From positions 6,428 to 70,427 of the forward strand of contig JAZJYZ010000001.1 of NCBI GenBank assembly GCA_040390125.1: a stretch of DNA of 64,000 nt, in the 5' to 3' direction. This DNA comes from Patescibacteria group bacterium (GTDB lineage Bacteria > Patescibacteriota > Minisyncoccia > Phycocordibacterales > Phycocordibacteraceae). How positions within the stretch are numbered: the stretch's first letter is position 1; each line of letters starts with the position of its first letter. The notes beneath the pieces are model-generated. The model did no database searches. It saw only the letters and a list, made by a program, of their open reading frames with translations, and was not told the DNA's origin. The position numbers and the translations under genes are program-made. Below are positions 60,254 to 62,396 of this stretch, one piece after another.

Positions 60254-60460
60254 GCTCTTAAATGCAGGATATCAGATTACACAAATCAACACATGCAAGC
60301 ATTCCGTACTCGCTTCACACAAATCACATCACTGTAGAGCTACCCTGGAGAAGGATCGTAAGAATTCATCAGATTGTACGGCTTATATGAGTGGGCTCGA
60401 TGTCGCCTCGTCATCCCTACACGTACAAATCAATCTCTCTTAATTCTAAATACAAACACT

Positions 60461-60607
60461 ATGGCAAAAATATTAAATACACTTCAGCGCAATATAATTG
60501 TGGTTGCAACAGTATTCACACTTTCACTTATCGGCTTACTATTTGCACTTCCGCTTTCCGTTCACGCTACGTCTCTTACTGCACACATGAGTCCTGAAGT
60601 GCGTTAG
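60461..60607 (+). CDS. Possible small membrane/secreted peptide (48 aa)
   Basis: ATG 60461. One hydrophobic helix (IIVVATVFTLSLIGLLFALPLSVHA). Followed by a strong terminator at 60678..60708. Confidence 0.3.
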   Translation: MAKILNTLQRNIIVVATVFTLSLIGLLFALPLSVHATSLTAHMSPEVR

Positions 60608-60677
60608 TGTGGCCTGGCCTAACACATTCACTACAAAGCAATAAGTAACGTGAATTACTAAGTGGTGTAGTGAATAG

Positions 60678-60708
60678 AAAACCCCCGCCAACTTGGCGGG
60701 GGTTTTTA
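60678..60708. terminator. Hairpin terminator (AAAACCCCCGCC-AACTT-GGCGGGGGTTTTT)
   Basis: Perfect stem. Same stem sequence as the terminator at 15417..15450. Confidence 0.65.
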
Positions 60709-60798
60709 TTTGGGTGACTTAGTGGATGCTGTTGGAACTGCGGTTAGAGGTCAAAAGAAAATTTCTGAGTGGACACTACAAACTCGAAAGTAAAATAC

Positions 60799-61239: not shown

Positions 61240-61496
61240 ACAACAAGCACAATATGTCCAGGATACTCTTTATGTCAATGGGGCTTCAATTTTGAATTGG
61301 CTACAGGGAATCGGTCACGAGTCACTAAGCATTTTACTTCTTTTCTCGCTTACACTCGACAGTGCGACGAGGCGTCGAATACTAAGTGCTCTCGAATCCT
61401 CTCGACACGATTTGCTAATCGCCCGCCTCAGCGCTTTCTCCTGCCCCGCAGGCACGCTTCCGGCTTTCGATTCCCTGTAGAACACAATGTGTTAAA

Positions 61497-61527
61497 AATT
61501 ATCCCGTCTTTGAGACGGGATAATTTT
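61497..61527. terminator. Hairpin terminator (ATCCCGTCTTTGAGACGGGAT + T-run)
   Basis: Stem-loop followed by AATTTT, directly 3' of tRNA-His on the minus strand. Confidence 0.55.
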
Positions 61528-61533
61528 CACCAA

Positions 61534-61607
61534 GGGTGACTACAGGGAATCGAACCCTGATCGAGAGCTCCACAAGCTCCAGTGTTAACCGTTACACCAT
61601 AGCCACC
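61534..61607 (-). tRNA. tRNA-His (anticodon GUG)
   Basis: Reverse complement GGTGGCTATGGTGTAACGGTTAACACTGGAGCTTGTGGAGCTCTCGATCAGGGTTCGATTCCCTGTAGTCACCC folds as a cloverleaf. 7-bp acceptor, anticodon loop UUGUGGA, T-loop GGTTCGATTCC, discriminator C. CCA not encoded. Confidence 0.8.
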
Positions 61608-61664: not shown

Positions 61665-61748
61665 GTGCCCAGGAGAGGACTCGAACCTCCACGCCCTTGC
61701 GGGCTTCACCACCTCAAGGTGAAATGTCTACCAGTTTCAACACCTGGG
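61665..61748 (-). tRNA. tRNA-Leu (anticodon GAG), long variable arm
   Basis: Reverse complement GCCCAGGTGTTGAAACTGGTAGACATTTCACCTTGAGGTGGTGAAGCCCGCAAGGGCGTGGAGGTTCGAGTCCTCTCCTGGGCA. Anticodon loop UUGAGGU. Class II variable stem-loop GCCCGCAAGGGC. Confidence 0.8.
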
Positions 61749-61799
61749 CAGGTTTTTATATTCTAAGTACTTTTAAGTCTTTTGCAAAGGACGCAAGAC

Positions 61800-62396
61800 T
61801 TACGCCGCCTCTTTTGCAGCTTCTTTTTCTTCTGCTGTCACTGGCTCTCCGACTTCAATTGGTGCGTTGTCATTTGCTGCTTCTGTTTCGGCAACTGCTT
61901 GCTCTGCTTTAATTGCTTCTTCTGCGGCTGCATTTTCAGCGGCTTTCGCTTCGGCGAGAGAAGCTACTTCGGCTGCTTCTCGATCGCTTCCTGTAGTTAG
62001 TGAAACAATACTCATCTTGCGAAGCTGGCGACGCATTTCTCGAGAAACCTTGTCACGGATGTAGTAGAGTTTCGCACGACGCACTTTCGAACGACGTACA
62101 ATATCTATCTTATCGATCATTGGGGAATAGAGGGGGAAAATCTTCTCAACGCCCACGCCAGAGAGCGTGGCACGAACCGTAAACGTAGCACCAGCCTCAG
62201 TACCGTGCTTTCGTGCAAGTACGAGCCCTTCGTACATCTGAATGCGAGTTTTGCCTTTTTCCTGGATCTTCTGATGCACACGCACCACGTCGCCAGAGCG
62301 AATATCAAGCTTTTTACGCTCTTCCACGTTCACCGAAGAAATAGTTTTGAGGTCAATTGCTACTACCATAGTGACGAAAAATAACACGGTTTGCAT
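61800..62396 (-). CDS. rplS: 50S ribosomal protein L19 with Ala/Glu-rich C-terminal extension
   Basis: Core SGDVVRVHQKIQEKGKTRIQMYEGLVLARKHG..FTVR..SGVGVEKIFPLYSPMIDKIDIVRRSKVRRAKLYY matches L19. An ~80-aa low-complexity acidic tail follows. Confidence 0.85.
   Translation of the reverse strand: MQTVLFFVTMVVAIDLKTISSVNVEERKKLDIRSGDVVRVHQKIQEKGKTRIQMYEGLVLARKHGTEAGATFTVRATLSGVGVEKIFPLYSPMIDKIDIVRRSKVRRAKLYYIRDKVSREMRRQLRKMSIVSLTTGSDREAAEVASLAEAKAAENAAAEEAIKAEQAVAETEAANDNAPIEVGEPVTAEEKEAAKEAA

Follow-up and report, generated by a model that had tools for sequence, protein, structure and literature searches.

Within the window, by which we mean the whole 64,000-nucleotide stretch of Patescibacteria DNA analyzed here, the 3' end of a tRNA-His(GTG) gene is present three times, and the question raised by this locus is what the two extra copies are. 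A preliminary description of the DNA had reported that a string from the 3' part of this tRNA recurs twice near the gene and that such recurrence is unlikely to be due to chance. Both points hold: the string CTACAGGGAATCG has exactly three exact sites in the window, at 61301-61313 (+), 61468-61480 (reverse complement) and 61540-61552 (+, within the gene), and none of 100 dinucleotide-preserving shuffles contained any exact match to it. The tRNA-His gene itself is intact and lacks an encoded CCA, as judged by ARAGORN, Rfam and the sequence, and tRNA-Leu(GAG) is found immediately upstream at 61665-61749. The copy within the gene, termed A1, spans the 3' half of the T-loop, the 3' strand of the T-stem and the start of the 3' strand of the acceptor. 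The inverted copy is complementary to 61540-61554 at 15 of 15 positions, while the direct copy reaches 16 nt with one mismatch (61298-61313 compared with 61537-52), and the two direct copies are 239 bp apart from start to start. What had gone unnoticed is that the two extra copies, the inverted one at 61468-61480 and the distal direct one at 61301-61313, complement each other exactly and are separated by 154 nt.

These mutually complementary fragments are the two arms of an element of approximately 180 bases, for which the tRNA-His gene is the target or host gene. The antisense copy, X', and the distal sense duplicate, A2, pair over 13 bp as helix P1 and close a three-way-junction fold at 61304-61477, the parts of which are given in Table 1. 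The segment closed by X' and A2 folds at -74.7 kcal/mol on the minus strand (z = -4.3), compared with -63.7 kcal/mol for the plus strand. Beyond X', up to about 61487, the sequence is still complementary to the acceptor end and trailer, though less strongly and in decayed form. The hairpin that lies between the gene and the element is terminator-like in both directions, and a flank comparison of about 50 members found a hairpin at the same position in every member of the family that follows a tRNA gene.

Table 1. Features of the tRNA-His locus and of the element that follows it, in window coordinates.
Feature	Position	Strand	Basis or details
tRNA-His(GTG)	61534-61606, encoded G-1 at 61607	minus	ARAGORN; Rfam tRNA model, 59.2 bits; sequence
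Copy A1 within the gene, TTCGATTCCCTGTAG	61540-61554	minus	sequence, repeat search, shuffles
Terminator-like hairpin between tRNA-His and element	61490-61532	minus	arms 61490-61509 and 61513-61532, 90% complementary; A/T tracts on both sides
X', antisense copy of the tRNA 3' end and 5' strand of closing helix P1, CUACAGGGAAUCG	61468-61480	minus	repeats, fold, model alignment
Conserved core, three-way junction	61314-61467	minus	fold; R1 match; family covariation
Junction AAA	61465-61467	minus	core part
P2: GCC/GGC base, GGA/GA internal loop, hairpin	61425-61464	minus	core part
Junction GGG	61422-61424	minus	core part
Extra hairpin, CGAUUAGCAAAUCG	61408-61421	minus	core part
P3, ending in conserved GUGAC (61314-61318)	61314-61407	minus	core part
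A2, sense duplicate of the tRNA-His 3' end and 3' strand of P1, CGAUUCCCUGUAGCCA	61298-61313	minus	sequence comparison

An ORF check gave no credible ORF between the direct copies. A 56-aa ORF on the minus strand covers the element, and a coding role for it was considered and rejected: in the related locus L023 the reading frame across the conserved block GGGAAUCGAAAG is another one, and the helices covary, and from these two observations we infer that the element is non-coding. The absence of an integrase from the flanking genes, as described previously, was borne out, as none was seen next to the window copy, and a neighboring protein of 146 aa has no homologue in the databases beyond itself. 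Exact-protein look-ups recovered a 2.5-kb contig of the same organism, the only extra contig on record, which is identical to the window over this region. Also nearby, at 60374-60714, a 77-aa ORF with a hydrophobic segment is found on the plus strand, followed by a strong terminator-like hairpin (AAAACCCCCGCC..GGCGGGGGUUUUU) with sub-threshold hits to the rnk and Leu leader models; this hairpin is most likely just a terminator.

Relatives were fetched via ribosomal protein L19 and are metagenome-assembled genomes of Parcubacteria/Paceibacteria, in which the gene order L19, tRNA-Leu, tRNA-His is kept. The L19 protein (rplS) of the window, at 61800-62396, numbers 198 aa, of which about 70 form a C-terminal extension rich in Ala, Glu and Lys, and the relatives align mainly up to residue ~130-190. 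Synteny around tRNA-His had been proposed earlier as a way to compare occupied and empty sites; the triple arrangement of tRNA-His tail copies is also present at two of the related loci, L003 and L008, occurrence among relatives is patchy, and no empty site was seen. In L003 and L008 the unit reads, in order, tRNA-His, hairpin, antisense arm, AAAG, two hairpin domains split by GGGG, GUGAC, and the tail copy. The antisense arm runs from an acceptor-5'-like through a T-stem-5'-like segment to AAUCG, and the tail copy is exact from C56 through the discriminator plus a few trailer bases. In the window, the acceptor part of A2 (TAGCCAA) is nearer to the TAGCCAC of tRNA-His in L003 and L008 than to the TAGTCAC of the window's own gene, and the acceptor-like part of X' is now unpaired, with the 13-bp P1 and the core intact. 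Because A2 resembles the tRNA of the relatives and X' has lost this pairing, the window copy looks old, with A2 and the distal part of X' partly decayed.

A covariance model, R1, was built from an alignment of 15 relatives (A3) from which the window was excluded. R1 matched the window at 61304-61477(-) with 36.9 bits (E=6e-7), the sole match in 64 kb. Across 848 kb its hits numbered 72 at E<=1; 63 of these, from 80 related genome loci, had E<0.01. A metagenome scan with the core motif yielded at least 120 stretches, and R1 applied to 80 metagenome loci recognized 98 members among the matches listed. Altogether, R1 found at least about 160 other family members in genomes and metagenomes of Paceibacteria, with a unit size of 130-250 nt among the ~160 instances listed. 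With the filters off, the model splits the window element into two partial hits, 61412-61477 and 61304-61402. The CGAUU/AAUCG ends of the closing helix recur in the extra hairpin CGAUUAGCAAAUCG, an insert that the window has in common with L002 and L007; it is possibly a vestigial joint of tail, loop and antisense arm, a relic of two fused units.

The structure is supported by compensatory change. When A3 is laid on the three-way junction, 93% of cells are paired and 21 of 29 pairs have changes on both sides, values attained by none of 500 shuffles, whereas sliding the partners as a control left only 33-47% paired. The metagenome alignment, A5, has 93.6% of cells paired and 26 of 29 pairs compensatory among the matches listed, though it was fitted to the model and its pair counts lean towards the structure. 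Internal loops of the element measure 2-3 nt, and closing-helix pairing across the family is imperfect and strand-specific, with G.U pairs. Of 96 sequences among the matches listed, 88 keep a G.U pair at the base of P3, and in 15 of 16 cases the sense strand gave the better fold. The G.U pairs and this folding preference assign the structure to the same strand as the host gene, so that the core helices fold on the gene-sense strand. That the family exists is plain from these data, and family and structure together are firmly supported.

Several smaller motifs recur within this structure. In many members a hairpin with a conserved CUGC tetraloop (GCAAACUGCUUUGC-like; L003:2150-2176, L064, L075, L028 and others) interrupts X' at the point where the body of a tRNA would branch off, and CGAGCGACGGCGAG, a mini-hairpin set between tandem G-A, is frequent at the tips of P2 and P3. 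Both the CUGC hairpin and the CGAGCGACGGCGAG tips may be sites of protein or tertiary contact. In one subgroup (L003:6845-6885, L009:4100-4145, L034:10615-10660, L023:6765-6815, L016 and L056), the sequences that border the hairpin between tRNA and antisense arm are conserved, with an AAGGAG-like string to its left and GACTAT(A/T)T to its right. Elements at different tRNAs have these borders in common, which could represent a processing site or the -10 part of a promoter.

The family did not correspond to anything in the collections searched. Rfam 15 scans by E-value of the window and five loci with clear members returned the flanking tRNAs only, ARAGORN and the Rfam tRNA, tmRNA and other models gave no match to the element at E<=1-5, and no match was obtained when the element was compared by BLAST with phage and plasmid collections. 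Matches from a scan of viral contigs were set aside as chance hits within coding DNA. A tandem pair of family members is present at 2800-3190 of L204 (IMG/VR UViG 3300033463_005745), a contig filed as viral; the label is doubtful since the neighbors look cellular (serine acetyltransferase, UDP-glucose 4-epimerase and cytidine deaminase). No description of the element was found in the searchable literature, and the family is large and apparently undescribed.

The genes that host the element are numerous and varied. Among the 63 R1 hits from the 80 related genome loci, 55 are 19-250 nt downstream of, and on the same strand as, a tRNA-His, Leu, Val, Arg or Ser gene. In the metagenomes a tRNA was upstream in 64 of 87 informative cases, with nearly all specificities represented, and the other hosts there were several tmRNA genes and, twice, the 3' end of topA, in both counts among the matches listed. 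In two genomes the upstream gene is the 3' end of rplK. The family is shared across genera and some 20 tRNA specificities, and occupancy is patchy, at roughly 20-25% of tRNA genes; 29 of 222 tRNAs in the loci have a near-exact copy of their 16-nt tail within 500 nt downstream. In L007 and L008 elements are found between the tRNAs of one operon.

With few exceptions, members are found at 20-250 nt from a tRNA gene, on its downstream side and on its strand. What unites them is a common layout, comprising the tail of the host gene (X), a hairpin, the antisense of X (X'), the core, and X again, although in some members X is only the last tRNA bases and the trailer. In each member the closing helix is formed by antisense and sense copies of the 3' end of the local gene, and the duplications range from 13 to about 70 nt. 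The direct copy follows the local tRNA tail genome by genome (TAGCCAC, TAGCCGC, TAGGCAC), and in L007, which has a quite different tRNA-His, the direct copy AAGTCCCATCGATCACCCCA matches that tRNA at 19 of 19 positions. The antisense arm tracks the local tRNA less perfectly than the direct copy does. Units with arms matched to the local gene also follow tRNA-Arg, Val, Leu and Ser.

Protein genes are treated in the same way. At L133:5590-5870 and L163:3500-3790 members directly follow the stop codon of topA, and the last 23-24 codons of the gene are present twice, flanking the element, with each copy ending in a stop. Members that follow rplK, at L009:7762-8330 and L005:12000-12340, have the gene-end hairpin duplicated on both sides. 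The repeat in L005 is 47 nt long and comprises the gene end, the hairpin and the bases after it, and a second, different partial core lies between the duplicated hairpins. The rplK copies prompted the idea that the element mimics the L1 leader or L1 stalk, which was rejected because rplA does not follow rplK in L009. Part of the Parcubacteria is reported to be without L1, and L009 fits with this. The topology of the element, which we take to be unlike that of the L1 stalk, was also counted against the idea.

Several features of the family suggest movement. L072 contains a tandem array of at least three units of 132 bp, and in L017 two different cores follow one tRNA-His, split by an identical tail, hairpin and X'; a second unit is also present in L023, in truncated form. 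The close relatives L057 and L071 have A1, hairpin and X' in common and cores that are unrelated. At L002 the tRNA-His gene is of a second type, yet the arms of the downstream element match the first type, that of the relatives, which suggests that the gene was replaced after the element arrived. Two unrelated types of tRNA-His gene occupy the same locus in this clade (L002:7482-7830 compared with L003, L008 and the window).

In the two related topA loci, L133 and L163, the duplicated tails have only 62-65% DNA identity, and the differences fall in 12-13 synonymous and 5-6 non-synonymous codons. Such mostly synonymous differences imply that both tails evolved as coding sequence and hence that one came from another lineage, as a displaced, non-functional copy would lose the synonymous pattern. 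The simplest reading of these sequences would be that two orthologous tails from different lineages were brought together, as fits an integrating element that brings its own replacement of the 3' end of its target. A diversity-generating retroelement, with template and variable repeats, was considered for the topA copies and rejected, since the differences involve all four bases, are mostly synonymous and are not adenine-specific. Taken together, the arrays, the core swapping and the topA tails look like the work of an integrative element that is miniature and non-autonomous and supplies its target with a replacement 3' end. Neither an empty site nor an excised circle nor a polymorphism in presence between strains was seen, the record for this organism holding one extra contig of 2.5 kb. 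There is no internal ORF family in the element, and an integrase, cargo or integrase fragment occurs in none of the ~160 instances listed. When ORFs within 3 kb of 76 metagenome hits were clustered in search of a cis-encoded mobility protein, no recombinase or reverse transcriptase family recurred, and only housekeeping families did.

We consider it probable, then, that the window copies represent one inserted unit of a non-autonomous integrative family that occupies the 3' ends of genes in Paceibacteria (Patescibacteria). How the unit moves, and how its fold might act as RNA, we infer to be as follows. The unit would act as an integrative element without a gene of its own, arriving with a replacement 3' end and a terminator for the target gene (A1 and the hairpin), and this proximal tail and hairpin would keep the gene functional and terminated. 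Recombination would occur at the 5' edge of the repeated segment, which in the window is in the T-loop at C56, and the native 3' end would be displaced downstream and left as A2. In a transcript or in single-stranded DNA, X' may pair with the target tail and help to select or hold the site; it would be able to pair with the tail on either side, and after integration would close P1 with the distal copy. In the free or transcribed form, X' would present a duplex or minihelix copy of the target, which might serve target choice, processing by tRNA enzymes, or both, and the transcript would resemble a tRNA minihelix, which the enzymes of tRNA processing could set free.

The most serious alternative to this integrative element is a vertically inherited, non-mobile gene for a non-coding RNA useful to the host, the closing helix of which would mimic the acceptor/T-stem stack of the neighboring tRNA. 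Such an RNA would be made either as part of the tRNA transcript or from a promoter of its own, would then be excised by RNase P and 3' processing enzymes, and would stay identical to its neighbor through gene conversion or function. It would be expected to show strong covariation and conserved junction nucleotides, as the family does, and the element is always on the tRNA strand, lies between tRNAs in operons (L008 and L007), and in some loci has a -10-like GACTATAT motif upstream of X'. With X' split, in many members, by the CUGC-loop hairpin where a D or anticodon domain would leave, the arms and hairpin look like a mini-tRNA. The identity of A2 to the neighboring tRNA could come from gene conversion or from constraint on a functional RNA, and the conserved junction nucleotides, the G.U pair and the operon positions fit a host-useful RNA equally well. 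We nevertheless think it unlikely, because it leaves unexplained the 47-70-nt duplications of protein-gene tails with their coding signature and does not account for tandem arrays of different cores or for core swapping between close relatives. Also against it, the arms in L002 match the older tRNA-His type and not the current gene, the occurrence at some 20-25% of tRNA genes is patchy, and the acceptor-like part of the helix is often poorly paired, including in the window.

An extension of the integrative reading, which we regard as rather doubtful, is that the family is a programmable mobile element free of protein genes, in which X' selects a tRNA, tmRNA or mRNA gene by pairing to its 3' end and the core catalyzes the reaction or recruits a host enzyme. 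The folded transcript or single-stranded DNA would carry the guiding X', and the core, with an invariant G.U pair beside the junction, would either catalyze strand transfer or recruit the host enzyme. The spare gene tail would be carried so that the host survives the hit.

The preliminary description had itself favored att-site-like remnants, and in one respect this was correct. The distal direct copy is an att-like duplicate that would be left by insertion, and its signature is found at many tRNA genes, at tmRNA genes and at two protein genes; the inverted copy, which had been left without explanation, is instead an integral part of the element as the 5' strand of its closing helix. It is very unlikely that the repeats are attL/attR of a conventional tRNA-targeting island or prophage that has lost its integrase and cargo and persists as a neutral scar. 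The direct repeat does run from the T-loop past the discriminator, the classical extent of identity blocks in tRNA att sites, and an integrase is absent nearby, as a scar would have it. A neutral scar is not expected to hold a conserved three-way junction with compensatory changes, however, nor to recur across genera and some 20 tRNA specificities, and the repeats enclose a complete, conserved unit of 130-250 nt with covarying helices. None of the ~160 listed instances holds a fragment of cargo or integrase, and the inverted copy is a constant feature and no accident. These results largely refute an island scar, and a generic recombination hotspot, the other earlier proposal, is at odds with the same architecture in ~160 listed places that are free of integrase and cargo.

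A further candidate is an intron-like or other RNA-level device, in which the unit would be removed from a read-through precursor and the tRNA body joined to A2, as a T-loop intron or replacement of the 3' half, or in which pairing with A1 or A2 would act as a switch. This too is highly improbable. It draws on the ability of X' to pair with either copy, on the conserved G.U pair beside the junction of core and A2, and on the tRNA-Arg(TCT) of L002, which passes from the T-loop straight into X', core and A2; but the window and most loci have a tRNA that is complete without splicing, the topA and rplK copies reach their stop codons before the element, and no intron or ribozyme model was matched. 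Bulge-helix-bulge splicing of tRNA, a pathway not known in bacteria, was also counted against it. At L002:1300-1475 the tRNA-Arg(TCT) gene seems to be interrupted: it extends as far as GGTTCGAT in the T-loop, where X' takes over directly, followed by the core and by a 3' end that matches (CGATTCCTCGCGGGGCTA). The gene is without an intact proximal 3' end and was not called by ARAGORN; either it is dead or the arrangement is akin to an intron. Ordinary promoter and terminator palindromes, or repeats arising by chance, for which one might cite the bidirectional terminator-like hairpin in the region, are already refuted by the shuffles, by the independent covariance-model match in the window and by the same arrangement in L003, L008 and many other loci.

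Among known systems, the family as we read it is most like the integrative elements that target tRNA and tmRNA genes, and in a few respects it also recalls folded att sites and guide-bearing mobile RNAs. Like those integrative elements, it is inserted at the 3' part of tRNA, tmRNA or protein genes and leaves the gene intact, duplicates the 3' end as a direct repeat from the T-loop, and forms tandem arrays by accretion; the duplicated protein-gene tail here also bears the signature of a foreign copy. Unlike islands with a tyrosine integrase or their CIME-type derivatives, the unit measures only 130-250 nt and has no integrase or cargo in any listed copy. Unlike tRNA-targeting elements generally, it always includes an antisense copy of the att segment and contains a conserved, covarying three-way-junction core, and one core family serves many targets with arms matched to each.

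The resemblance to integron attC sites and to the attP(+) of CTX phage, both used by folding of one strand (the latter with XerCD), is in the imperfect inverted repeat that pairs into a duplex attachment site, in the order of site, apex, inverted arm, rest and site, and in cassette-like tandem arrays. Neither the RYYYAAC/GTTRRRY motifs nor dif-like XerC/XerD boxes are present in the unit, however, since the arms are target-specific and share only what the T-loops of tRNAs share, and the conserved part here is the structured core, that is, the cargo itself. With tRNA-like RNAs such as the tmRNA domain, viral 3' TLS, YrlA and mascRNA, the element has in common that its 5' and 3' ends form an acceptor and T-stem stack up to the discriminator, and by analogy the predicted ends of the element could plausibly be recognized by RNase P and the CCA-adding enzyme. 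Unlike these RNAs it has no T-loop, as the T-stem is extended by pairing with the 3' half of the T-loop, and it matches no tRNA or tmRNA model; moreover, the mimic copies whichever gene is upstream, tails of protein genes included.

Guide-bearing mobile RNAs, namely group I and II introns with their IGS and EBS sequences and the bridge RNA of IS110, likewise have an internal segment complementary to the flank of the insertion site. The element differs from the introns in that it has no catalytic core with an Rfam match and its host gene works without splicing, as with the intact tRNA-His of the window, and from group II introns and IS110 in that it has neither a gene for a reverse transcriptase or DEDD recombinase nor large guide loops. 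It is also unlike MITE- and REP-type repeats, as there are no common terminal repeats and the arms, in duplications of 13 to about 70 nt, copy the local target, and unlike diversity-generating retroelements, as no reverse transcriptase family recurs among the neighbors. Given that it has no Rfam family, that no description was found in the searchable literature, and that it fails the defining tests of these known systems, we rate the family as a new kind of element.

Should the integrative reading prove true, about one fifth of the sampled tRNA genes in these ultra-small, uncultured bacteria would carry a parasite or partner of ~200 bases that encodes no gene, adopts a conserved RNA-like fold, and has arms made to fit each host gene. 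This raises the questions of how such an element moves and is re-targeted without an enzyme of its own, whether a tRNA-mimicking transcript is handled by RNase P and the CCA-adding enzyme, and how tRNA expression and genome stability are affected. The family accounts for many signals of tRNA fragments and pseudo-att sites that island-finding software may misread, and R1 provides a new covariance model for the annotation of Patescibacteria genomes. If the element is indeed programmable, it would represent a new class of RNA-guided and possibly ribozyme-like integration, abundant in the reduced genomes of the Patescibacteria.
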